Assembly: GCA_003056265.1 (NCBI GenBank)
Contig: NBVN01000003.1
Location: 120,001-152,000, forward strand
Direction of reading: 5' to 3'
Length of the DNA: 32,000 bases
From: Zestosphaera tikiterensis
Lineage (GTDB): Archaea > Thermoproteota > Thermoprotei_A > Sulfolobales > NBVN01
Positions 3 through 21,900 of the stretch are shown piece by piece. Made by a program: the position numbers and the translations under genes. The notes under the pieces are model-generated. The model worked only from the letters and a program-made list of their open reading frames with translations, was not told where the DNA came from and ran no database searches. Each line of letters opens with the position of its first letter. Position 1 is the stretch's first letter.

Positions 3-2264
3 AAAGGTAAGTCCCTCTACACTGCGGACTTCCTTAAGTTCTACAAGAACGCGGTTTTCGTTCATAGCGTTAGGACTAAATACGCTCATGCTTTAATAAA
101 GAGTATTGACGTTAGCGAAGCATCTAAATACCCAGGAGTTCTTAAAGTCATTACAGCTAAAGACATACCGGGCATAAACGACGTTGGGTATGTAATACCT
201 GATCAACCACTTATAGCTGATAGGAAGGTAAGGTATATAGGAGATATAGTAGCTCTCATAGTTGCCGAGGATCAGATGATAGCTAGGGAAGCTGAGAGCT
301 TAATCCATGTAGAGTATGAACCATTAGAAGTGATTACAGACCCGCTGCAGGTAGTTGACCTCATGACGCTTAAGGAGAAACCGCATACGTTAATCCATGA
401 CGAGAGAGGTAGCGACGTGTTAGTACATTACAAAGTGAGGAGAGGGGATATGGAGAAGGCGTTAAGGGAAGCGGACGTTAAAGTTGAAGGGGTTTATAAA
501 ACGCCTTTCCAGGAACACGCCTATCTAGAGCCTGAAGCCGCTATAGCCATTCCGGAAGCTGAAGGCGGAGTGACCGTGATTTCATCTACGCAATGTCCTT
601 TCGACGTTAGGAAAGCTGTAGCTAAGGTTTTAGGAGTTCCTCTAAATAGAGTTAGGATAGTGGTTCCGGCCGTTGGCGGTGGTTTCGGAGGTAAGGAGGA
701 CGTAGCTAATGAGGTAGCGGCTAAAGCTGCCTTAGCTGCTGTATTAACTGGAAGGCCGGCCGTATCAATCCACACTAGGGAGGAGTCGATCATAGGCCAT
801 AGTAAAAGACATCCCATGATTGCTTGGTATAGACACGCAGCTAAGAAAGACGGTACTTTACTGGCTGTTGAAGCTAATATAGTTATGGATACCGGTTCCT
901 ACGCTTCCTTAGGGCCTTTCGTGCCGTGGAGAGCTACCGTCCACGCTACAGGTCCTTATAAGGTGGGGGCCGCTAGAATCGACACTAAAGCTGTTTACAC
1001 GAATAACGTATACGCTGGAGCGTTTAGAGGTTTTGGAAACCCGCAGGTGATATTCGCTGTTGAAAGGCAGATGGACCTACTGGCTGAGGAGTTAGGTATG
1101 GATCCTGTAGAGCTTAGGTTAAAGAACATACTTCGCGTAGGTGATGAAACAGTACATGGTCAGAAACTTACTGAGGAACATGGCGTCGGGCTTGAGGAAG
1201 CCTTACTTAAAGCTGTTGAGGCCTCTAACTGGAGTAGTAAGAGGATGGAGTATAGGAAGGCCGTAGGTCCTTTAAGGAAGGGTATAGGGGTTGCCATCTT
1301 CTACCACGGAAACTCCATAGGCGTTGAGGGCGCTGACTACTCATCCGTTACGTTAATAATAAATAGGGATGGCTCGATATCCTTCAGAACAGGTCTTACG
1401 GAATTCGGTCAGGGATCGACTTGGGGTCTTGTGTTAATAGCTGCGGAGATATTGGGTGTCCCGCCCTCATACTTTAAGGTTGAGAACCCAGATACTTCAG
1501 CAACTCCCGACGCAGGACCTACGGTAGCTTCAAGAGCGACTGTTATGGGAGGGGCTGCTACGGTTATAGCTGCTCATAAGCTTAGGAAGAGGCTCAATGA
1601 AGTAGCCTCACATATATTGGGTTGCGATCCTGAGGATATCGTTATTAAAGCACCTGAAGTTTACTGCGGTTCAGACCCTAACCGCAGGACTGTTTGGCAG
1701 GATGTTGTAGAGCAAAGCTTCTGGTTAGGTATACCTCTTCAAGAGTTCGGCTACTACAGAGCACCTAGGGCTGTCTGGGATGAGGAGACGGGTCAGGGAG
1801 CGCCTTACATAACCTACACATTCGGTGCTATAGTAGCTGAAGTCACCGTAGATATGGAAACAGGCTTAACTAAGGTGGATAGAATCTACACAGCTTACGA
1901 CATAGGTAGGGTAATTAACAAGGTAGGTGCTGAGCTTAACGCTGAAGGGGGTGCCATACAGGCCTTAGGCTATGGACTTATGGAGGAGTTAATACATGAT
2001 AAGGACGGTAGGGTTATGAATCCAAACCTTTCAACGTATTACGTCCCAACCATAAAGGACGCGCCGGAAATCATACCTATATGGGTTGAGGCACATTATA
2101 GGAAAGGACCTCTCGGCGCTAAAGGTTTCGGGGAACCTTCATTTAACGCCGTCGCTACAGCTATAGCTAACGCCGTATCCCACGCGATAGGTTTACCCGT
2201 GTATGAGTTACCTTTAACTCCTGAGAGAATTTACATGATGTTGAAGAAAGCGGGTAAGATTTAA
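3..2264 (+). CDS. Xanthine dehydrogenase / aldehyde oxidase-family molybdopterin-binding large subunit, 5' end cut by the window edge
   Basis: Frame 3 is open from base 3 (KGKSLYTADF...KVRYIGDIVALIVAED) upstream of the listed Met at 276, so the gene starts outside the window. It has a VGGGFGGKE motif and a GFGEPS motif near the C-terminus, and the length and architecture are typical of CoxL/XdhA/aldehyde oxidoreductase large subunits. Confidence 0.85.
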   Translation, partial: KGKSLYTADFLKFYKNAVFVHSVRTKYAHALIKSIDVSEASKYPGVLKVITAKDIPGINDVGYVIPDQPLIADRKVRYIGDIVALIVAEDQMIAREAESLIHVEYEPLEVITDPLQVVDLMTLKEKPHTLIHDERGSDVLVHYKVRRGDMEKALREADVKVEGVYKTPFQEHAYLEPEAAIAIPEAEGGVTVISSTQCPFDVRKAVAKVLGVPLNRVRIVVPAVGGGFGGKEDVANEVAAKAALAAVLTGRPAVSIHTREESIIGHSKRHPMIAWYRHAAKKDGTLLAVEANIVMDTGSYASLGPFVPWRATVHATGPYKVGAARIDTKAVYTNNVYAGAFRGFGNPQVIFAVERQMDLLAEELGMDPVELRLKNILRVGDETVHGQKLTEEHGVGLEEALLKAVEASNWSSKRMEYRKAVGPLRKGIGVAIFYHGNSIGVEGADYSSVTLIINRDGSISFRTGLTEFGQGSTWGLVLIAAEILGVPPSYFKVENPDTSATPDAGPTVASRATVMGGAATVIAAHKLRKRLNEVASHILGCDPEDIVIKAPEVYCGSDPNRRTVWQDVVEQSFWLGIPLQEFGYYRAPRAVWDEETGQGAPYITYTFGAIVAEVTVDMETGLTKVDRIYTAYDIGRVINKVGAELNAEGGAIQALGYGLMEELIHDKDGRVMNPNLSTYYVPTIKDAPEIIPIWVEAHYRKGPLGAKGFGEPSFNAVATAIANAVSHAIGLPVYELPLTPERIYMMLKKAGKI

Positions 2265-2290
2265 TTTCTCCAACCTTAAATTTAAGACGG

Positions 2291-3013
2291 TTGAGATATG
2301 TGGAGGTTTTAACAACTTCTAAATTACTTGATAGCGTGCTTGAGGTTTTTAAGGAGAGGGCTGACGACCTAACGTCAAGCGGTTGGTGCGTTAGTGACGC
2401 ACAATCACTTAAGTGGTGGGGTTGTTTAGGAAGCGTTGATGAGATCTTCATCACTGCGGTTTTAGTTCAGTTAAGTAGGTGGGAAGCTGTGGTTAAAGCT
2501 TTAGAGAATCTTAAAGTACGTGGGTTGTTAAGCCTAGACGCGATTAACGAGGCGGATGAGGGAGTTTTAAGAGACGCTATTAAGCCAGTTGGTTTAAGAG
2601 GTGTTAAAACGCGAAGACTTAAGGAATTAGCTATTAAGGTTAAAGAAGTCGGCGGCTTAGATAAGCTTTCATTGCTTAAAGATGATGAATTAAGGGATTT
2701 TCTACTTTCGATAGACGGTATAGGTGAGGAGACCGCGGATGCTTTACTTCTCTTCGCGTTCAACAGAGCTACGATACCTATATCTAGGTATGTCGTGAGG
2801 GTTTTAAGTAGGGTTGGCGTGATTGAAGGGTTTGTAAGCTACGAGAAACTCAGGAAGGAGTTAATCAATACGTTGAATGGGGACCTCTATAAGTTAAAGC
2901 TCCTCTATTCAGGACTAACCCACGTAGGGAAAACAACGTGCTTACCTAAACAACCCGATTGTATGCGATGTGTTTTAAGTAGGATATGTCGAAGCTCTAC
3001 GGTTAAAAACTGA
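2291..3013 (+). CDS. Endonuclease III-related HhH-GPD DNA glycosylase-like protein with a 4Fe-4S cluster loop
   Basis: It has a helix-hairpin-helix motif (LSIDGIGEETADALLLFAF) and a C-terminal C-X6-C-X2-C-X5-C (CLPKQPDCMRCVLSRIC). The start is TTG. Confidence 0.75.
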   Translation: MRYVEVLTTSKLLDSVLEVFKERADDLTSSGWCVSDAQSLKWWGCLGSVDEIFITAVLVQLSRWEAVVKALENLKVRGLLSLDAINEADEGVLRDAIKPVGLRGVKTRRLKELAIKVKEVGGLDKLSLLKDDELRDFLLSIDGIGEETADALLLFAFNRATIPISRYVVRVLSRVGVIEGFVSYEKLRKELINTLNGDLYKLKLLYSGLTHVGKTTCLPKQPDCMRCVLSRICRSSTVKN

Positions 3014-3031
3014 TTGGGAGGAGTTTTTACG

Positions 3032-3700
3032 TTACGCTCCGCCGAAGGCTCTATCTCCAGCGTCCCCTAACCCGGGGACTATATAGCCTTTATCGTTAAC
3101 TTCCGGGTCTATAGACGCGGTATACAGTTTTAAGTTTATGTTAAGTTCCTTACTTATCTTCTCCAGCCTTTTAATCGCTATCGGCGTTGTTATTGCTGAA
3201 ACTATTATGTATTGTTTTGCTTTGCCGTACCTCATAAGAACGTTTAAAACCGTTTCCATTGTTGACGCGGTTGCCACCATAGGATCCACGATTAAAACTA
3301 TTTCGTCGTTTCTTATGTGCGGTATTCTAACGTATTCAACATCCACGTCAAACCTCATTTCCTTATCCATCCCCTTCTCCTCAACCCTCTTGGCTGAGAT
3401 TATGCCTTGCTTCGCGTTAGGGAAGATTTTAATTAGTCCTTCAGTCATAGGCCATGCAGCACGTAAAACCGTAACTATCACGACTTTATCCACGTCTTTT
3501 ATCCTAACCCCCTCAGCTTGAACTCCTAATGGAGTTTCAACAACGACTTTCTCAGTTTCAAAATCTTTAATTATTTCGAAGCCGAAGGCTCTCCCAAGCC
3601 TAACTAAAGACTTACGGAACTCAATCTGCTCCGTGTTCTTATCTCTTAACTCGGTTAGGACCGCCTGTATGTAGGGATGCCGTAGGACTTTAACCTCCAT
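3032..3700 (-). CDS. upp: Uracil phosphoribosyltransferase
   Basis: It has a PRPP-binding loop (LIVDPMVATASTM), a C-terminal YIVPGLGDAGDRAFG, an N-terminal RHPYIQ..LT.LRD, and is 222 aa long. Confidence 0.9.
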   Translation of the reverse strand: MEVKVLRHPYIQAVLTELRDKNTEQIEFRKSLVRLGRAFGFEIIKDFETEKVVVETPLGVQAEGVRIKDVDKVVIVTVLRAAWPMTEGLIKIFPNAKQGIISAKRVEEKGMDKEMRFDVDVEYVRIPHIRNDEIVLIVDPMVATASTMETVLNVLMRYGKAKQYIIVSAITTPIAIKRLEKISKELNINLKLYTASIDPEVNDKGYIVPGLGDAGDRAFGGA

Positions 3701-5168: not shown

Positions 5169-5430
5169 TGAGATAATTCTACCACTATCCAGGCCTACGG
5201 TCGGTGTAGCCGGTAGGACGGGAACTTGGAGGGTTAATAGGCCGGTATTCAACAGCGAGAAATGCATTAAATGCAGGCTTTGCTGGCTTTACTGCCCAGA
5301 CAACGTTATCGACGTTAATGAAGCCAACCCATCCAACTTCATAACCATAGACTACAATTACTGTAAGGGCTGTGGTGTCTGCGTTGACGTCTGCCCTACT
5401 AAAGCGTTAACTTTAGTTCCTGAGAGGTGA
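5143..5430 (+). CDS. 2-oxoacid:ferredoxin oxidoreductase, delta (2x[4Fe-4S] ferredoxin-like) subunit
   Basis: It has two CxxCxxCxxxCP motifs (CIKCRLCWLYCP, CKGCGVCVDVCP). It overlaps the end of gamma; an in-frame GTG at 5161 is an alternative start. Confidence 0.88.
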   Translation: MKGWYAVVDEIILPLSRPTVGVAGRTGTWRVNRPVFNSEKCIKCRLCWLYCPDNVIDVNEANPSNFITIDYNYCKGCGVCVDVCPTKALTLVPER

Positions 5431-6623
5431 TGGGTTTGGTCTTAACTACTTTAACAGGGAATTACGCGGTATCTTACGCAGTTAAACTATCTAGGGTTAA
5501 AGTAGTTTCGGCATATCCGATAACGCCTCAAACAACTATAGTTGAGAAGATAGCTCAACTTATTGAAGATGGTGAGATGGATGCTGAGATGATTAGAGTT
5601 GAGTCGGAGCATTCCGCGTTGGCCGCGGCTTACGGCGCGGCCTCAGCCGGCGTTAGAGCGTTTACAGCTACGTCGTCTCACGGCCTACTCTACATGCATG
5701 AGATGCTTTGGTGGGTTGCTGGGTCTAGAATACCTTTGGTTATGGCTGTAGCTACGAGGACTATCGGACCGCCTTGGAATATATGGACGGATCACAGCGA
5801 TTTAATGGATCAGAGGGATACGGGTTGGTTGATAGCTATGGCTGAAAACAATCAGGAGGTGTTGGATGAAACCATTAAAATGTTTAAAATAACTGAAGAT
5901 CCTAGGGTGTACCTCCCGGGGATCGTGGGGTTAGACGCCTTCATATTAACGCATACTTCAGAGCCTGTTGATATACCTACTCAGGAAGTCGTTGATCAAT
6001 TCCTGCCTGACAGAAGACAACCCTACGTGTTTAAAGCCGGGGATCCTTTAATCATGGGTAACATACCTAAAGACTTAGAGTTGAATATGAGGATGCGTGA
6101 AGACATAGATAAAGCTATGGAGAGGGCTAAGAAAGTTATCGACGAAGTGGATTTTGAGTGGGGGAAGCTGACTGGGAGGAGGTATGGAGGCTTAACTGAA
6201 TGCTATAGATGTGAAGACGCTAAACACTTCATCATAGGTATGGGGGCTTGGGTTGGAGATATGAGGGAAGCCGTCGATAAGTTAAGATCGAAGTATGGGG
6301 TTAAGGTAGGGCTGATTAAAATCAGGTATGTACGTCCCTTCCCTAGAGAAGACCTTATTAAGTGGTTAAGTAACGCGTCAAGCGCCGTCGTCTTCGACAG
6401 GTCTTTCTCGCCTGGTTCGGGCGGTCATCTATTCCTAGAGACTGTCGCCCACGCCAGCGTAGCTGGGGTTAGAACCCCGATAAAGAATTGCTTGGCTGGG
6501 ATCGCGGGCGTTGACGTAACTTACGAAGACATCGTTGACGTCGTGCTTAAATCCATATCTGAAGTTGAGGAGGTGGGTACGTTCAAAGAGTTTATTGAGT
6601 GGTATTATAGGGGTGGGCGGTGA
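5427..6623 (+). CDS. 2-oxoacid:ferredoxin oxidoreductase, alpha subunit
   Basis: The N-terminus is typical (GNYAVSYAVKLSRVKVVSAYPITPQT...ESEHSA). An ATGA start/stop overlap with delta suggests translational coupling. Confidence 0.9.
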   Translation: MMGLVLTTLTGNYAVSYAVKLSRVKVVSAYPITPQTTIVEKIAQLIEDGEMDAEMIRVESEHSALAAAYGAASAGVRAFTATSSHGLLYMHEMLWWVAGSRIPLVMAVATRTIGPPWNIWTDHSDLMDQRDTGWLIAMAENNQEVLDETIKMFKITEDPRVYLPGIVGLDAFILTHTSEPVDIPTQEVVDQFLPDRRQPYVFKAGDPLIMGNIPKDLELNMRMREDIDKAMERAKKVIDEVDFEWGKLTGRRYGGLTECYRCEDAKHFIIGMGAWVGDMREAVDKLRSKYGVKVGLIKIRYVRPFPREDLIKWLSNASSAVVFDRSFSPGSGGHLFLETVAHASVAGVRTPIKNCLAGIAGVDVTYEDIVDVVLKSISEVEEVGTFKEFIEWYYRGGR

Positions 6624-7510
6624 TGGTCTTAACGATTAAAGACCTACCTAAGGATAAGTACGTAATGCCGGGTAATGCGGCATGCCCCGGATGTCCGGAA
6701 AACTTAGGTTTAAAGTTCGTTGGGATGGCTTTAGGCGAGAAAGCGATTTTAACCATACCCGCCGGCTGTACCTCAGTAATTCAAGGCCTGCTGCCGGGGT
6801 CAGGGCTTAAATTCCCTATAATTAACGTCCCCTTCGCGTCGTCGGACGCTGTAGCTGCGGGGGTAAGCGTAGCTAAGAAGTTGATTGGGGAGGACGCCGT
6901 AGTTATTGCTTGGGCTGGGGACGGAGGCACTGCGGACATAGGGTTTGCGACGCTTTCAGGAGCTGCTGAAAGAAACGATAATATCATACACATATGCGTG
7001 GATAACGAGGCTTACATGAACACAGGCATTCAAAGATCTTCTCAAACCCCCTTAGGGGCTTGGACCACGACTACTTGGAAAGGAAAGAAGGAAAGGAAGA
7101 AAGACCTACCGATGATTATGTTAATGCATAAAATACCTTACGTAGCTACTGCGAGCGTCGCATACCCCCTAGACTTCATAGAAAAGCTTAGGAAGGCAGC
7201 ATCCATTAAAGGGTTTAAGTACATCCACCTACACGCTCCATGTCCAGTAGGTTGGAGGTTCGACCCAATGAAGACCGTAAGCGTTGCTAAGTTAGCTGTC
7301 GAGACAGGGATGTGGATATTATTCGAAGCCATCAACGGGAAGGTAGTGATAAGCCCTCCAAGCAAGCCATACGTAGATAAAACCAAAAGAAAACCCATAA
7401 AAGAATACCTATCAATTCAAGGCAGGTTTAGAAACATAACTGAGGAAATATTAAAAGACCTCGAAAGACAAGTAGATGAAAACTGGGAAACACTCTTAAA
7501 GTTTACATAA
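6620..7510 (+). CDS. 2-oxoacid:ferredoxin oxidoreductase, beta (TPP-binding) subunit
   Basis: It has a CPGCP cluster ligand motif and a TPP-binding GDGGTADIG...N motif. An ATGA overlap links it to alpha. Confidence 0.9.
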   Translation: MMVLTIKDLPKDKYVMPGNAACPGCPENLGLKFVGMALGEKAILTIPAGCTSVIQGLLPGSGLKFPIINVPFASSDAVAAGVSVAKKLIGEDAVVIAWAGDGGTADIGFATLSGAAERNDNIIHICVDNEAYMNTGIQRSSQTPLGAWTTTTWKGKKERKKDLPMIMLMHKIPYVATASVAYPLDFIEKLRKAASIKGFKYIHLHAPCPVGWRFDPMKTVSVAKLAVETGMWILFEAINGKVVISPPSKPYVDKTKRKPIKEYLSIQGRFRNITEEILKDLERQVDENWETLLKFT

Positions 7511-14924: not shown

Positions 14925-15001
14925 GGGCCGGTAGCTCAGCCTGGAAGAGCGCTCGGCTTGCAACCGAGAGGTCCCGGGTTCAAGTCCCGGCCGGTCCACC
15001 A
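14925..15001 (+). tRNA. tRNA-Ala (anticodon UGC), CCA encoded, no intron
   Basis: I folded the cloverleaf by hand. The acceptor GGGCCGG/CCGGTCC has the G3:U70 alanine identity pair. The D stem is GCTC/GAGC, the anticodon stem is CTCGG/CCGAG with loop CTTGCAA, and the T arm is CCGGG-TTCAAGT-CCCGG. The discriminator is A, followed by CCA. There is a TATA-like TTTATAA about 30 bp upstream. Confidence 0.95.
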
Positions 15002-15295
15002 ACCCCTCATTAAGTTAACTACGTCGCCCGCGATTTCCTTCGCTAGCCTACGTAATTTCTTCGTGGTTAATCTGTAGTTAACTGACCCGTCATCGTTAAC
15101 TACGCCCAGCTGGGTTAGCTGGTAGTGACGCACTAGAACCTCAAGAGGGGCTACGTAGTTTGTGATGACTTTACCGCCGACCCTATACTGCTCGTAGACA
15201 TAGAGCTTACCCTTAACCTTCTTAACGACGAAGCCCAAGCCAACACCCAAATATGTAGTTAACTCTGAAGGCATATTAACCCAAACCCCACCCAA
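14936..15295 (-). mobile_element. Int(N): N-terminal fragment of a partitioned SSV-type integrase, reading antisense through tRNA-Ala (att junction)
   Basis: KGKLYVYEQYRVGGKVITNYVAPLEVLVRHYQLTQLGVV resembles the SSV-type integrase N-terminus. The last about 22 codons (WWTGRDLNPGPLGCKPSALPG) are simply the reverse complement of the tRNA gene. No catalytic C-terminal part follows. The likely ATG is at 15274. Confidence 0.65.
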
Positions 15296-16480: not shown

Positions 16481-17812
16481 TTAACTTAGATTTCTCACGT
16501 AATTGGTGAACTCCTCGTTACTTGAGAAGAGCTTATACATATTGTATGAGTATATAGCATATACCCTACCGTTTACGCATCCACTCTGACTCCAGTAGCT
16601 AAAGTACTCTTGTAGTGCTATGGTAACATCTTTAGCGGTTAAAGCATAAGGCATATTAGTATAATATCTCCCTGCGGGATCTACTATCGCAAGCTTTCCG
16701 TTAGTTTCAGGTAAAGCTACTGTTGCATGACCTACTGTTTCGTTGTCTTTTTCAAAGACAACCAGCAAAACCCATACAATACGTTTCTTTCCGTTATAGT
16801 TTAATATCATGCTTGCTAAGAGGTTTGCCATATCTTCGCAATCACCAGTTAAATCTCTTGCTGTTTCGTTGGGAAATCTCCAAAATTCACGCCTCCACAT
16901 TAACGACGTATTCAATTCAGGCAATATCGGTTCTGGGGAATCGTATGAGTAGTATATGCTGTCTTTTACCCATAAATACATTTTTAGTATGTCATTCCAA
17001 AGCTCGTTTATATCTGCTTGATTGCTCCAACCGCCAGTAACGTTGATTACAAGCGATTTAATCGCTGGATCTTCTGGTGTTATAAACTTCATCCAGTCCT
17101 CATATTCTAGTGCTTGCCTTAAATTTACCTGGCTCTTGATGCTGTTATACCAAGATATGAAGCTCTCGTATTCGGTTTTAAGTGAGTTATACATATTTAC
17201 CAACGCTTCGTACTTGCTGACTAGCGAATCATAAAACTCTTTTAACATGTTGTAGTTTATGCTTAACTTATCGTAATCTTCTTGAAGTAATGAATATTTC
17301 TTGTTAAGGTCGTTGTACTTATTGTTGAGAGTGCTGTAATCACTAAGTAATGAGTTATACTGGTTTTGAAGTGCAACATAGTTGTTATTTAGTATGTTGT
17401 AGTTGTTAAGTAGCTCGTTGTATTGCGTGGTGATTTTTACGTAGTCGTTCTTAAGGGCCTCGTAATCGTTAAGTAACTGCTCGTATTGATTCTTTAACAT
17501 GTTATAATCGTTTTTAAGTACGCTATAGTTGTTGAGCAACCTACTATATCGAGCGGTAAGCTCGTTATAGCTGTCCTTAAGTTGGTCGTATTGGTTCTTT
17601 AACGTGTCGTAGTTACTTTTAAGTACGTTGTAGTTATTGAGCAACATACTATATTGATTAGTTAGCGAATCATACTTATTACTCAACGTTTGATAATCCT
17701 GTTTGAGAGATAAAAACTCACTATAGAAATACCCAAAAAGAGACGCAAAAACCATATTCAAAACAACTAACGTAACTACCACAACCTTCAACGAAGGCAA
17801 ATTACCTCCCAT
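16481..17812 (-). CDS. Membrane-anchored protein: N-terminal TM helix, 27-heptad Y-x-x-L coiled-coil stalk, C-terminal transglutaminase-like cysteine protease/transglutaminase core
   Basis: The TM helix is KVVVVTLVVLNMVFASLFGYFY. Tyr occurs at every seventh residue from Y40 to Y222. The Cys/His/Asp triad context is TGDCEDMANLL (C325), VGHATVAL (H362) and AIVDPAG (D378). Confidence 0.75.
   Translation of the reverse strand: MGGNLPSLKVVVVTLVVLNMVFASLFGYFYSEFLSLKQDYQTLSNKYDSLTNQYSMLLNNYNVLKSNYDTLKNQYDQLKDSYNELTARYSRLLNNYSVLKNDYNMLKNQYEQLLNDYEALKNDYVKITTQYNELLNNYNILNNNYVALQNQYNSLLSDYSTLNNKYNDLNKKYSLLQEDYDKLSINYNMLKEFYDSLVSKYEALVNMYNSLKTEYESFISWYNSIKSQVNLRQALEYEDWMKFITPEDPAIKSLVINVTGGWSNQADINELWNDILKMYLWVKDSIYYSYDSPEPILPELNTSLMWRREFWRFPNETARDLTGDCEDMANLLASMILNYNGKKRIVWVLLVVFEKDNETVGHATVALPETNGKLAIVDPAGRYYTNMPYALTAKDVTIALQEYFSYWSQSGCVNGRVYAIYSYNMYKLFSSNEEFTNYVRNLS
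17129..17722 (-). repeat. 21-nt (heptad) periodic coding repeat region
   Basis: It encodes 27 consecutive heptads with invariant Tyr and Leu/Ile/Phe at +3. The repeats are degenerate at the nucleotide level. Confidence 0.85.
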
Positions 17813-18371
17813 AATTTATCATAAAGAGTTACATAAAAAAGATTGCGTTGCTAAATAATAAATTGTTAGACAGATACTAGCTACTTCTTTAGTTAGTTTA
17901 AAAGACCTTTCTAATCTAACTCAGATACAAAGATCTTGATCATCACTCTTCTCTCCAAAGAATATAGGAATTGATGTCATATTACTGGTATTCTGGTATT
18001 ATAAAGAGAGTTCTCACGATTGCTTCGTACCTGCTACCTACCTATGATAAGCCCTTTTATTTCTCTTATTAGAGTTCAAGAAAAAGGTTAAAGAAATAGT
18101 AAAACCTGTTATAAAGGTAAGGAGCTAACGTTAGAAGAATACATTAAAAGAGTAGACGAGGAATGTAAAGGCATGAGAAAATTTAGAATAAGCACAAAAG
18201 AAAAATCTAAATACGAAGACAATTGAAACGCCCTATTAAAAACTTAGAAGTAGGTAACATAAACCAAATATTGTTGCCGTTGAAGCTTGCTCTTAATGGT
18301 AAGAGCGTAGATTGCTTATTAAACTGCTTAAACATGCTTATATCTTAACCTTTATAAGGTTTGCTTAGGGT

Positions 18372-19589
18372 TTATAAGTAAGGGTAGTGACCGTCTGGGT
18401 GGGAAGGGTAGAATTTCTCGTTCATTTCCTTTATCAGTTCTAGCAGTTCGTGTGAATTGTGAGCTAAAGGTATGCTATCGAGTAAATCTCGCCATTTCTT
18501 ACTTTGTTCGCATAACCCATTCCATTGCGAATACCCTTTGTCTAGTCCTCTAAGGGCATCAGATAAGCTAGGGTCTAGTCTTCTGAGGACGTTAGATAAG
18601 CTAGGTATGTCAACACCAACTTTCAATCCGTATTCCTGATATTTATTGGCGTAACCGCTTAACCAAGCTTTTTGGAACTTGTTAGGTTCAAACTCCTCAA
18701 GCGGAACTTTTCTTCCGTTACCTGTCTTTGGATTGTTGCGGAAATCTCTGTATGCTTCAAAGTGAGGCACGACATTATTTATGAACATATCGTATAGCGA
18801 ACTAAAGTCGTTTGACCAAGTTCTTGGGTGGAAAAGCGGATATTCCTTCGGTAGGGAGTAAGGATCTATGGGTACAACCGCTACGTTATGAAAGTCTATT
18901 GATGGGCCTAACCCTGCTACGACATATAACGCTACATTGTTAAAGTTCTCATCCCATAGGGGTTTAACAACCTTTAATAGGGTTTTAAAGCCTGTTAGTT
19001 GCTTTTCTAAAATCCTTGAGCTATCCCATTCACGTTTCCCAGTAGGATCCTTGAATGATAATTCAAAGATAATCCTTCCCCGCCCGCTATCACGTAGAGA
19101 TTTCTTAAGCTCTTCTCTAATAAGGCTAATTGCCTTCTCGTTATTATTTAAGGTCGAGAAGAAGATACCATTTGTTTGAATAACAGCTCTTGTGCTGGGA
19201 TATCTGTTCAGCCCAATTTCTTGTATTACCTGTAAAGCCTTACCGCAGGCTTTTAACGTAAGTAAAGTTCTATCCAAAGAAAGGCACGGCTCACCTCCCT
19301 GTATTCTTACCCAGTTAATTTTCCTTTGAACGTTAAGACTGTAGAGATTATCCAGAGCCTTCAATACGTGATCTAAACTATATGTGTAACCCTCTCTATT
19401 CGGAAACCACGCATATCTCCAAGCATAACATAAGGGACATCTAAGGTTGCATCCAGCATACCTTAAAACAAGGGCGTATCCTTCACCACCTCTTTTACCT
19501 TCCTTATTCAACTCAAAAGGTCTAATTTTCGAATCTATTGATGACTCAGTTGGTGATCTAGCAAAAAATTCGTATTGCTTCATAACCAT
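18372..19589 (-). CDS. Radical SAM enzyme (activase/QueE-like N-terminal core) with an uncharacterised C-terminal extension of about 200 aa
   Basis: The CX3CX2C motif is AGCNLRCPLCYAW (codons at 19428-19451), and the GGE SAM-binding motif is IQGGEPCLS. I do not recognise the second half. Confidence 0.75.
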   Translation of the reverse strand: MVMKQYEFFARSPTESSIDSKIRPFELNKEGKRGGEGYALVLRYAGCNLRCPLCYAWRYAWFPNREGYTYSLDHVLKALDNLYSLNVQRKINWVRIQGGEPCLSLDRTLLTLKACGKALQVIQEIGLNRYPSTRAVIQTNGIFFSTLNNNEKAISLIREELKKSLRDSGRGRIIFELSFKDPTGKREWDSSRILEKQLTGFKTLLKVVKPLWDENFNNVALYVVAGLGPSIDFHNVAVVPIDPYSLPKEYPLFHPRTWSNDFSSLYDMFINNVVPHFEAYRDFRNNPKTGNGRKVPLEEFEPNKFQKAWLSGYANKYQEYGLKVGVDIPSLSNVLRRLDPSLSDALRGLDKGYSQWNGLCEQSKKWRDLLDSIPLAHNSHELLELIKEMNEKFYPSHPDGHYPYL

Positions 19590-20781: not shown

Positions 20782-21900
20782 CTACGAATAACTTCTTAAG
20801 TATTCTTGAATTATTGGTGAGAGACGTTTTTTAGCTTTTGATATTACTTCAAGTCCTAAAGTTAGTGTTTCTGCGTTGTCTAGAAGTATTTCATCGTTTA
20901 TTATTAGTGTTTCCACGCGTAGCTCTCCTTCAACGATAGCTTTAGTTAAGCTGTTTATTTCTGTAGGTAAGGGCCAGCCGGGCGGTTCTGAGGTATTAAA
21001 CATAAGTATGTTTGTTATGTAGTTGTTTTCTATAGGGCCTAAAGACTTAAATCCTAGGATGCTGGGGTTTCTGGCCGTCGCCGCGTAAATTACGTCTATT
21101 GGGTGTTTACCGGTTTTATACACGACCTCTCTAGAGACGTCTATCATGCTGTATGAAGGTCTAACGCCTATGCCTAACCCTTCGTTAGGTTTCCACATGC
21201 TTAACTGCGATCCCCACCTGATTACGTTATTTCCAGACCCGTTCGTAGGGTTTATATAAACTACGTTGGGTTCTGAAGGGTCTACGTAAGGCGCGTTTAA
21301 CACGAAGAGCTTCAAACCATATGCTTTAGCAGTCTCTAAAACTTCATCAGTGGGTTTTCCGCAAGTTGCTAAAGCTACCTTCACCTCATCAACTTTCTCA
21401 TGCCATCTGTTAATCAACATTTTAAACTCGTTCTCAGGCTCGAACTCCTCCAAACCGCAGTTTATAGGCGGGGCTAGAACAACGTTAAAGCCTGAGTCGT
21501 GTGCCGCCCTAGCTACCTCATCTAAGTATATATCTATAAATAACGCGTTCGTAATCCCTTTAGAGATCATTTCAATCATAGTCATAGCTGCTAAGAAATA
21601 CATATCAGTCCTGCTTAACTTCCTAAGGTAGTCTAGATTCTTACTTAAATCCGGGTCTTTAACGACGTACCTAAGCGGGTAAAGAGAAGCTATGGTGTAC
21701 GCGGAGCTAAACGCGGGTAGGACCAACCTATCCTTACCGCTAATCAATAGTTCGGGGTAGCTGAATTCCTCCGGAGGCTCTCCCTCACCCACTCCGTTAA
21801 CCCTTCCCTCACTTGAGAATATATACCCCTCCTTAATTAGGAGTTTCTCCTCGGTAGAGAACGTGAGTATTGAGGCGTTATTAATTAGGATTTTAACCAA
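20782..21900 (-). CDS. Amidohydrolase-superfamily-like protein lacking the canonical HxH metal motif
   Basis: The N-terminal beta-sandwich pattern (ILINNASILTF...GYIFSSEGRVNGVGEG...GKDRLVLPAF) is typical of cytosine/MTA deaminase-like amidohydrolases. Where HxH is expected the sequence is SSAYT. It has a TTG start and ends 6 bp from the nucleoside phosphorylase gene. Confidence 0.6.
   Translation of the reverse strand: MVKILINNASILTFSTEEKLLIKEGYIFSSEGRVNGVGEGEPPEEFSYPELLISGKDRLVLPAFSSAYTIASLYPLRYVVKDPDLSKNLDYLRKLSRTDMYFLAAMTMIEMISKGITNALFIDIYLDEVARAAHDSGFNVVLAPPINCGLEEFEPENEFKMLINRWHEKVDEVKVALATCGKPTDEVLETAKAYGLKLFVLNAPYVDPSEPNVVYINPTNGSGNNVIRWGSQLSMWKPNEGLGIGVRPSYSMIDVSREVVYKTGKHPIDVIYAATARNPSILGFKSLGPIENNYITNILMFNTSEPPGWPLPTEINSLTKAIVEGELRVETLIINDEILLDNAETLTLGLEVISKAKKRLSPIIQEYLRSYS

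Follow-up and report, generated by a model that had tools for sequence, protein, structure and literature searches.

What a cell might do with a protein in which tyrosine recurs at every seventh residue over 27 heptads, and which kind of enzyme is carried at the end of such an array, are the questions raised by one gene in a stretch of 32,000 nucleotides from the archaeon Zestosphaera tikiterensis (Sulfolobales; GenBank assembly GCA_003056265.1, contig NBVN01000003.1, positions 120,001 to 152,000 of the forward strand), here called the window. The gene encodes a protein in which an N-terminal transmembrane (TM) helix is followed by the Tyr/Leu heptad array and by a C-terminal domain with the fold of papain-like and transglutaminase-like enzymes. 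On balance, we favour the view that the array is a homo-oligomeric coiled-coil spacer, which would hold a protease or isopeptidase of surface proteins at the height of the S-layer. An earlier note on this DNA, made from its letters alone, had described a tyrosine-zipper stalk with a transglutaminase-like domain; its interpretation turned out to be largely right and was overstated on two points, the uniqueness of the array and the mobile island in which the gene was said to lie.

The periodicity of the array is exact. A script run on the open reading frame (ORF) of 443 residues finds Tyr at positions 40, 47 and so on up to 222, in 27 consecutive heptads with zero stutters, and a hydrophobic residue three positions further on in each of them (Leu in 24, Ile in two, Phe in one), which reproduces exactly the count of the earlier note. 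The stalk is composed mainly of Asn (17%), Leu (16%), Tyr (14%), Ser (10%) and Lys (9%), it contains neither Pro nor Gly, and Glu, Lys and Arg together make up only 14% of it. Among the 2,291 ORFs of at least 100 residues in the 1.81-Mb genome, in which the frequency of Tyr is 4%, the second-longest run of Tyr with a period of seven comprises four residues, and a chance origin of the array is therefore excluded. The sole other long period-7 array of the genome, with 13 Leu and 8 Glu at seven-residue spacing, is found in a 252-residue ORF on the minus strand of contig G000:C2 (reverse-strand frame offset 289535) and is a conventional coiled coil of the leucine-zipper type. A recent origin by duplication or slippage of DNA was considered and ruled out: Tandem Repeats Finder detects no tandem repeat at the DNA level in the array, the Tyr codons are divided between TAC (14) and TAT (13), Leu is spread over five codons, and the 21-nucleotide units have a mean identity of 48%. 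The mixture of codons for both residues and this level of identity between units indicate that the array is old and that the residues themselves are under selection.

The array is preceded by the only hydrophobic segment of the protein (Kyte-Doolittle 2.37). Over the 28 members of the family described below, the N-terminal flank of this segment carries 73 Lys or Arg and almost no Asp or Glu, and the C-terminal flank 44 Lys or Arg; according to the positive-inside rule, this excess therefore argues for a signal anchor with its N-terminus inside and its C-terminus outside, and the protein would be a type II membrane-anchored ectoenzyme. In the AlphaFold2 (AF2) model of the monomer, computed from the 28-sequence alignment, one unbroken helix extends from residue 29 to residue 231 with a predicted local distance difference test score (pLDDT) of about 78–90, and the C-terminal domain reaches about 96. 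Hydrophobic a and d positions in a helical context are the mark of an alpha-helical coiled coil, and here a is Tyr in 27 of 27 heptads, d is Leu, Ile or Phe in 27 of 27, and the model is helical throughout. Since the structure models are monomers, we infer coiled-coil formation and oligomeric state from the amphipathic Tyr/Leu seam, which must be buried and therefore points to a parallel homo-oligomeric coiled coil: the helix would associate with itself as a dimer or a trimer, with rings of Tyr in the a layers and Leu in the d layers. A homo-oligomer is favoured because the genome encodes no other Tyr stalk that could act as a hetero-partner, and model peptides from the Hodges laboratory with Tyr or His at a reportedly preferred the trimer, which can serve as a lead only.

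At 0.1485 nm per residue, the 189 residues of the array would form a coiled coil of 28 nm, the length given in the earlier note, and the predicted helix measures about 30 nm. Published S-layer heights above the membrane (bioRxiv 10.64898/2026.08.21.746120) are about 30 nm for Sulfolobus, 37 nm for Pyrobaculum and 70 nm for Staphylothermus, so that with a rigid spacer of 28–30 nm the catalytic domain would lie level with the S-layer lattice or just below it; the comparison with the S-layer scale had already been drawn, and about 28 nm does fit the range of about 30–70 nm for Thermoproteota. Hydropathy, AF2, Pfam and Foldseek concur with the overall architecture then proposed, i.e., a TM anchor, a long heptad helix and a transglutaminase-like domain with Cys, His and Asp.

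The C-terminal domain, taken alone, matches the Pfam family DUF553 (PF04473) over residues 273–384 (E = 2.9e-9, 37.0 bits against a cut-off of 20.5), and shares with it the Cys-His-Asp triad and the papain/transglutaminase fold. DUF553 is mainly archaeal; it is assigned to the papain-like superfamily and corresponds to ‘family 3’ of the 1999 paper of the Koonin group on transglutaminase homologues, according to a passage in PMC10318531. No experimental work on DUF553 was found in the literature searched. With only 37 bits, the window protein belongs to a divergent subfamily, whereas a second, canonical DUF553 protein of the same genome (G000:C14:105984-106310, locus L006, ORF 1120..3324 on the minus strand, 734 residues) scores 110 bits and is built differently, with a cytoplasmic domain of about 280 residues, one TM helix, a Thr/Pro-rich linker (PPTTT...TTTTATT) and the catalytic domain, without a coiled coil. 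Over the family, DUF553 is matched by 25 of the 28 members and Peptidase_C93/BTLCP (PF06035) by two (E <= 2e-4); the window protein gives no match to the Pfam model of the latter.

The putative catalytic residues were followed in two alignments of 28 sequences each, that of the family (A1) and an independent one across phyla (A2), whose taxa include Bathyarchaeia, Pyrobaculum, Desulfurococcales, Nitrososphaeria, Hadarchaeota, Thermoplasmatales and Dehalococcoidia. G323, D324, D327, H362, D378 and P379 are invariant in A1, where C325 is present in 27 sequences, and C325, H362 and D378 are found in all 28 sequences of A2, in the order Cys...His...Asp. The GDCED motif (residues 323–327), H362 and D378 thus lie at the residues first reported, and the three catalytic positions, whose variation among homologues would have spoken against the earlier note by its own account, are conserved. 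Furthermore, a domain-only AF2 model derived from the cross-phylum alignment (pLDDT 94.9, predicted TM-score 0.92) has a helix (97–111) that begins at the Cys and two strands (130–141 and 145–150) that bear the His and the Asp. This is the arrangement of the transglutaminase/papain-like fold (Peptidase_CA clan), to which all the top Foldseek matches belong; in fact, all the matches of the domain in the PDB are Cys-His-Asp enzymes of the transglutaminase-like fold. The best of them is 3isr, a putative cysteine protease from Cytophaga (E = 1.3e-5), followed by the LapG structures 4fgo and 4u65 (E = 3–5e-4, TM-score about 0.5 on the target), and the others include PNGase, CPR-C4, TglA, PeiP/PeiW and vasohibins. 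In a library of viral structures, the matches were transglutaminase-like proteins and pseudomurein endoisopeptidase.

Among these relatives is LapG (BTLCP, Peptidase C93, PF06035; 4FGO, 4FGQ, 4U65), a cysteine protease that works outside the cytoplasm and cleaves surface proteins, with a calcium-dependent release of adhesins from bacterial surfaces. No PDB entry gave a better match to the family profile, LapG is also a top fold match, and the profile aligns to its sequence (E = 3e-4) over W-x-P-x-E ... GDCED ... H ... D, motifs that indicate kinship at the superfamily level. LapG differs from the window protein in being soluble and periplasmic, in belonging to diderm bacteria, in its control by LapD and c-di-GMP, and in lacking both stalk and anchor. 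Because every close structural relative is a hydrolase, and by analogy with LapG, we rate a protease or isopeptidase acting on surface proteins as the most likely function: the domain would be a cysteine hydrolase that trims, matures or sheds S-layer or other surface proteins. Eight residues ahead of the predicted catalytic Cys, a PNET stretch (residues 314–317, positions 16862–16873) contains the N-glycosylation sequon N-E-T and aligns to the P-x-E of LapG; P314 and T317 of this stretch do not vary in A1 and show at least 90% conservation in A2, and its role may be structural, that of a conserved attachment site for a glycan, or a combination of the two. The coordinates of all these features are collected in Table 1.

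Table 1. Position of the stalked enzyme, its parts and the neighbouring integration site in the window.
Feature	Position	Strand	Residues	Remarks
Whole gene	16481..17812	-	443 (ORF)	coordinates take in the TAA stop; ATG start at 17812
Alternative TTG start	17800	-	5	preceded by GGAGGT
TTTTTTAT, TATA-box-like element	17833..17840	-		21-28 nt 5' of the ATG; sequence reading only
N-terminal signal-anchor TM helix (LKVVVVTLVVLNMVFASLFGYFY)	17723..17791	-	8-30	predicted N-in, C-out
Continuous predicted alpha-helix	17120..17728	-	29-231	203 residues; AF2
Tyr(a)/Leu(d) heptad array	17129..17695	-	40-228	27 heptads
C-terminal globular domain, predicted DUF553/transglutaminase-like papain-fold cysteine hydrolase	16484..17128	-	229-443	
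GDCED motif	16832..16846	-	323-327	aligns to LapG
Predicted nucleophile Cys	16838-16840	-	325	inside GDCED
Predicted catalytic His	16727..16729	-	362	invariant in A1 and A2
Predicted catalytic Asp	16679..16681	-	378	IVDPAG; invariant in A1 and A2
tRNA-Ala(UGC)	14925-15001	+		overlapped by the integrase fragment
SSV D-335-type integrase N-terminal fragment, int(N)	14936-15295	-		overlaps tRNA-Ala

The role of the array as a spacer is suggested by its variation among homologues. A word-indexed search gave 27 relatives that are likewise built of TM anchor, stalk and domain (33–50% identity), nearly all of them metagenomic. The number of Tyr/Leu heptads per orthologue ranges from 4 to 31, insertions and deletions comprise whole heptads, and Tyr is sometimes swapped for His or Phe. 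Other members retain the anchor and the domain and carry alternative stalks, made of Thr-rich heptads (P0020–P0024), of repeats containing WLxGN[IV][ST] (L011, L013 and L014, relatives from the same order) or of sequon-rich L-N-x-x-L heptads (L103 and L104); if fully helical, the stalks of the family would measure an estimated 6–48 nm. Since the indels are of whole heptads and other subfamilies have swapped in Thr-rich or WLxGNxT stalks, the stalk would act as a spacer whose length and type vary freely, the anchor and the domain being fixed. As regards the alternative stalks, the motif S-W-L-x-G-N-[IVKT]-[ST]-x-Y-E-S of L011, L013 and L014, with its Trp, Gly and sequon, recurs about every 35 residues and may represent a glycosylated kink or layer. 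L103 and L104, on contigs of the IMG/VR database (ORF 5278..6648, plus strand), carry a cytoplasmic zinc ribbon at the N-terminus, followed by a TM helix and a stalk of about 130 residues, the L-N-x-x-[LI]-x-x heptads of which are dense in N-x-S/T sequons; none of their neighbours was recognised except for a weak SU10-adaptor-like match.

In a scan of one genome per species, the archaeal carriers of the family belong to Bathyarchaeia, Thermoproteota (Pyrobaculum, Desulfurococcales), Nitrososphaeria, Brockarchaeota, Hadarchaeota, Thermoplasmatales and Methanofastidiosum, and the bacterial ones to Dehalococcoidia, where Tyr makes up only 1–3% of the stalk. Dehalococcoidia are not known to have peptidoglycan and possess a wall of the S-layer type, so that the family appears to track envelopes consisting of a membrane plus an S-layer.

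Several observations weigh against a stalked surface protease as outlined above. The Asn-rich stalk is an unusual composition for a helix, its single sequon gives no indication that this particular stalk is glycosylated, and a search of the PDB with the stalk sequence returned no entry with a Tyr/Leu heptad core. On the side of the enzyme, Foldseek superposes the domain on known enzymes with modest TM-scores (about 0.42–0.52), sequence cannot separate hydrolase from transferase chemistry, and no conserved neighbour gene hints at a substrate, either in three genomic contexts or among 149 neighbouring ORFs at 27 cellular loci.

It is on the chemistry that the first of the alternatives turns. The domain might be a true transglutaminase, which would join S-layer proteins or other proteins of the envelope through isopeptide cross-links and so harden that envelope in a thermophile. 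Cross-linking transglutaminases share the fold and the Cys-His-Asp triad, Transglut_core (PF01841) is matched with E < 0.01 by 23 of the 28 family members, the fold matches include the transglutaminase-like enzyme TglA, and some Thermoproteales S-layers withstand sodium dodecyl sulphate and heat, which has led to proposals of covalent links. However, the window protein itself falls below the cut-off of Transglut_core (E = 0.053, 14.2 bits against 23), its nearest structures and its only significant profile match are hydrolases, and the characterised prokaryotic members of the transglutaminase-like fold are mostly hydrolases as well, so that we consider cross-linking unlikely. As judged from the models, the close structural relatives of the domain are all hydrolases and ‘transglutaminase’ is the name of a fold; the term transglutaminase-like in the earlier note holds for the fold and the triad and need not imply a cross-linking activity.

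A second alternative, in which the gene is the cargo of a mobile element or virus, starts from its surroundings. The tRNA-Ala gene and the int(N) fragment (14925..15295) make up a putative integration scar, which borders a low-GC accessory stretch (about 15.3–20.8 kb) on its left side: GC is 0.32–0.40 between 15 and 20 kb and 0.365 in the gene, against 0.419 in the genome, and the 372-residue gene on the right flank (20782–21900) is core, being present in 49 of the 51 genomes of the taxonomic family. Horizontal acquisition of this copy is made likely by the occurrence of relatives in only 24 of the 351 genomes of the class, the best about 43% identical, together with the differently built DUF553 paralogue, and is further supported by the low GC of the gene and by the rarity of Tyr stalks in the window's own order; the copy was probably acquired into the tRNA-Ala-linked accessory region. 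The ‘mobile island’ of the earlier note is supported in part, by the integrase fragment, the dip in GC and the patchy distribution, but neither a second attachment-site (att) copy nor int(C) was found in the window, and most family members sit among housekeeping genes. Virion genes were not recognisable in the window either, and relatives offered no clean empty site, the proC flank and the 372-residue flank lying on separate contigs and the flanks not being syntenic. A link with the adjoining radical-SAM gene and the gene for a 231-residue protein was ruled out, as they do not co-occur in the contexts of the homologues.

As a viral product, the stalked enzyme would cut the host S-layer from inside for the release of virions, or would remodel the surface so that other viruses are excluded, combining features of PeiP/PeiW of methanogen viruses with those of phage i-spanins, i.e., the type II anchor and the coiled coil. 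Besides the integrase fragment at tRNA-Ala, the low GC and the patchy distribution, such a role is suggested by the relatives on four IMG/VR contigs (35–42% identity) and by PeiP/PeiW as fold neighbours. One of these contigs, L102 (IMG/VR_UViG_3300031876_000075), encodes a Tyr/Leu-stalked member (278..1366, plus strand) and, about 5 kb away, a T4-type terminase large subunit (6430..7350, plus strand; E = 3.8e-14); to judge from these genes, at least one copy of the family lies on the contig of a tailed virus or provirus. Nevertheless, no match was found among 50,697 phage or 72,556 plasmid records, and the neighbours at the 27 cellular loci (149 ORFs) are mostly housekeeping genes, the 25 most frequent families including no integrase, terminase or capsid; P0012, for example, is flanked by glycine-cleavage and NAD-kinase genes. 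Judged from these records and neighbourhoods, and apart from the four IMG/VR contigs, mobile elements do not carry the family, and viral cargo seems to us improbable. The likeness to the viral systems is also limited: PeiW and PeiP (8JX4, 8Z4F) share the transglutaminase-like fold and are archaeal enzymes that cleave cell walls, some of them virus-encoded, but their pseudomurein substrate is not expected in the window's lineage, the similarity is weak (E of about 5e-3 to 1e-2), and they have neither TM anchor nor stalk; the i-spanin Rz/LysB likewise has a type II anchor followed by a coiled coil that spans the periplasm, but lacks a catalytic domain, and its weak NCBIfam match (E = 0.04) is explained by the layout of TM helix plus coiled coil alone.

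We attach very little weight to a PNGase-like activity of the domain, as an amidase or deamidase acting on the glycans or side chains of surface glycoproteins rather than on peptide bonds: the PNGases of mouse and yeast figure among the top fold matches (E of about 1e-3) and archaeal surface proteins are heavily N-glycosylated, but PNGase ranks below the protease matches, no match to it was found at the sequence level, and zinc-binding and carbohydrate-binding modules are absent. Equally far-fetched, in our opinion, is that the Tyr heptads are no coiled coil and form an isolated helix, a disordered segment or a non-helical repeat, with a periodicity that serves, e.g., Tyr modification or adhesion; to this reading belong the high Asn content, the monomeric nature of the model and the only significant PDB sequence matches of the stalk, to the disordered C-terminal domain (CTD) of RPB1 with its Tyr every seven residues, and against it stand the lack of Pro and Gly, the strict 3–4 spacing of a and d with Leu at 24 of 27 d positions, the single AF2 helix, the whole-heptad indels among orthologues, and a content of Glu, Lys and Arg far from the dense one that single-alpha-helix domains need. 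Homology to the RPB1 CTD itself was ruled out, since the alignments consist of the Tyr residues alone and the CTD is Pro-rich.

The preferred reading, a coiled-coil spacer with a surface protease at its tip, can be set in a wider frame, as the Tyr/Leu stalk is by no means confined to this family. A phmmer search of 1.84 billion cluster representatives with the stalk alone gave 1,235 matches with E <= 1e-3, 194 of them with E <= 1e-10, and the uniqueness of the array implied by the earlier note was hence overstated. Among the best 150 of the 1,235 matching representatives, at least 111 are proteins with Tyr(a)/Leu(d) arrays, many with long period-7 runs of Tyr beside an N- or C-terminal TM helix, and the domains that they carry are unrelated (Ig-like, beta-rich or other transglutaminase-like). 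A few matches of the search are unrelated proteins, such as an LPXTG-type bacterial adhesin and near-perfect low-complexity repeats, one of 31 units. This adhesin-like protein (P0095, 1,785 residues), which is anchored to the bacterial cell wall, has 42 consecutive Tyr with a period of seven in an Ala/Lys/Asp-rich helix (..AKxxYDxxKAxYD..) and is a separate, second kind of Tyr-periodic helix, unrelated to the Tyr/Leu stalk. In a sample of 401 genomes of the phylum, stalk matches with E <= 1e-8 were obtained from 111; they are concentrated in families outside the window's order, being rare in that order and common in other classes, and the 11 loci inspected are all genuine Tyr/Leu arrays, five of them in proteins with anchor, stalk and transglutaminase-like domain. 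In this sense the Tyr/Leu zipper appears from its sequence distribution to be a common idiom of archaeal surface proteins, not a peculiarity of the window protein, which is nonetheless the longest perfect archaeal Tyr array among those examined; the earlier description of a Tyr core as unusual is correct with respect to textbook coiled coils, but not as something special to this protein.

The heptad profile of these stalks, compiled from 1,739 heptads in the 111 proteins, has Tyr (0.88), Phe (0.06) or His (0.06) at a and Leu (0.92) at d, with 28% hydrophobic residues at e and 43% charged residues at g. The sequon N(g)-Y(a)-S/T(b) is observed 189 times against 86.5 expected, an excess consistent with the wider class being glycosylated extracellular stalks. 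No description of arrays with Tyr at a (‘tyrosine zipper’) was found in the full-text literature searched. We put forward, as a tentative idea that is possible rather than probable, that Tyr(a)/Leu(d) arrays form a class of extracellular coiled coils in their own right, found for the most part in archaea, with a packing of their own (a continuous ladder of stacked or hydrogen-bonded Tyr) and often with interleaved N-Y-S/T glycosylation sites, which would serve as a modular ruler with the number of heptads tuned to the height of the S-layer and would thereby fix the distance of enzymes and other domains from the membrane.

Among the systems already known, the tetrabrachion of Staphylothermus and SlaB of Sulfolobus are likewise membrane-anchored coiled-coil spacers, tens of nm long, which span the space below the S-layer; they are not homologous to the window protein, which differs in the enzyme fused to its stalk, in the strict seven-residue repeat and in the Tyr/Leu core. 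Tetrabrachion is a right-handed tetramer with an 11-residue repeat and an aliphatic core, and the protease on its stalk is a separate, bound protein of the subtilisin type. The best Pfam match of the stalk is HALZ (PF02183), the leucine zipper of plant HD-Zip proteins (E = 9e-15), which has a similar heptad of the form Y-D-x-L-K; the likeness is one of composition and periodicity, without homology, and HALZ is a short nuclear dimerisation zipper that lacks a long Tyr ladder.

Little is understood of archaeal envelopes, and hardly anything of the enzymes that act beneath the S-layer. The family studied here would offer an enzyme that is fused to its own spacer and positions itself, and since the sequence of a stalk gives its length, one can test directly whether stalk length is related to the height of the S-layer. 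The Tyr/Leu zipper deserves attention in its own right, being common, strictly kept by selection and without a solved structure or a description in the literature searched: a structure of such a stalk would reveal how a core with an aromatic residue in every a layer is packed, and the stalk could provide protein designers with a thermostable rod of polar surface. By comparison, the gene in the window is a more modest result, one more member of a recurrent uncharacterised family.

With respect to the gene itself, the start in the public gene call (P0001) is the TTG at residue 5, not the upstream ATG. The spacing between TTTTTTAT and the ATG would fit a leaderless or short-leader archaeal mRNA. 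The adjoining radical-SAM gene (18372..19589, minus strand) contains two tandem copies of 33 nucleotides at 18540–18605, 85% identical to each other, which encode a duplicated segment of 11 residues, PSLSNVLRRLD / PSLSDALRGLD.

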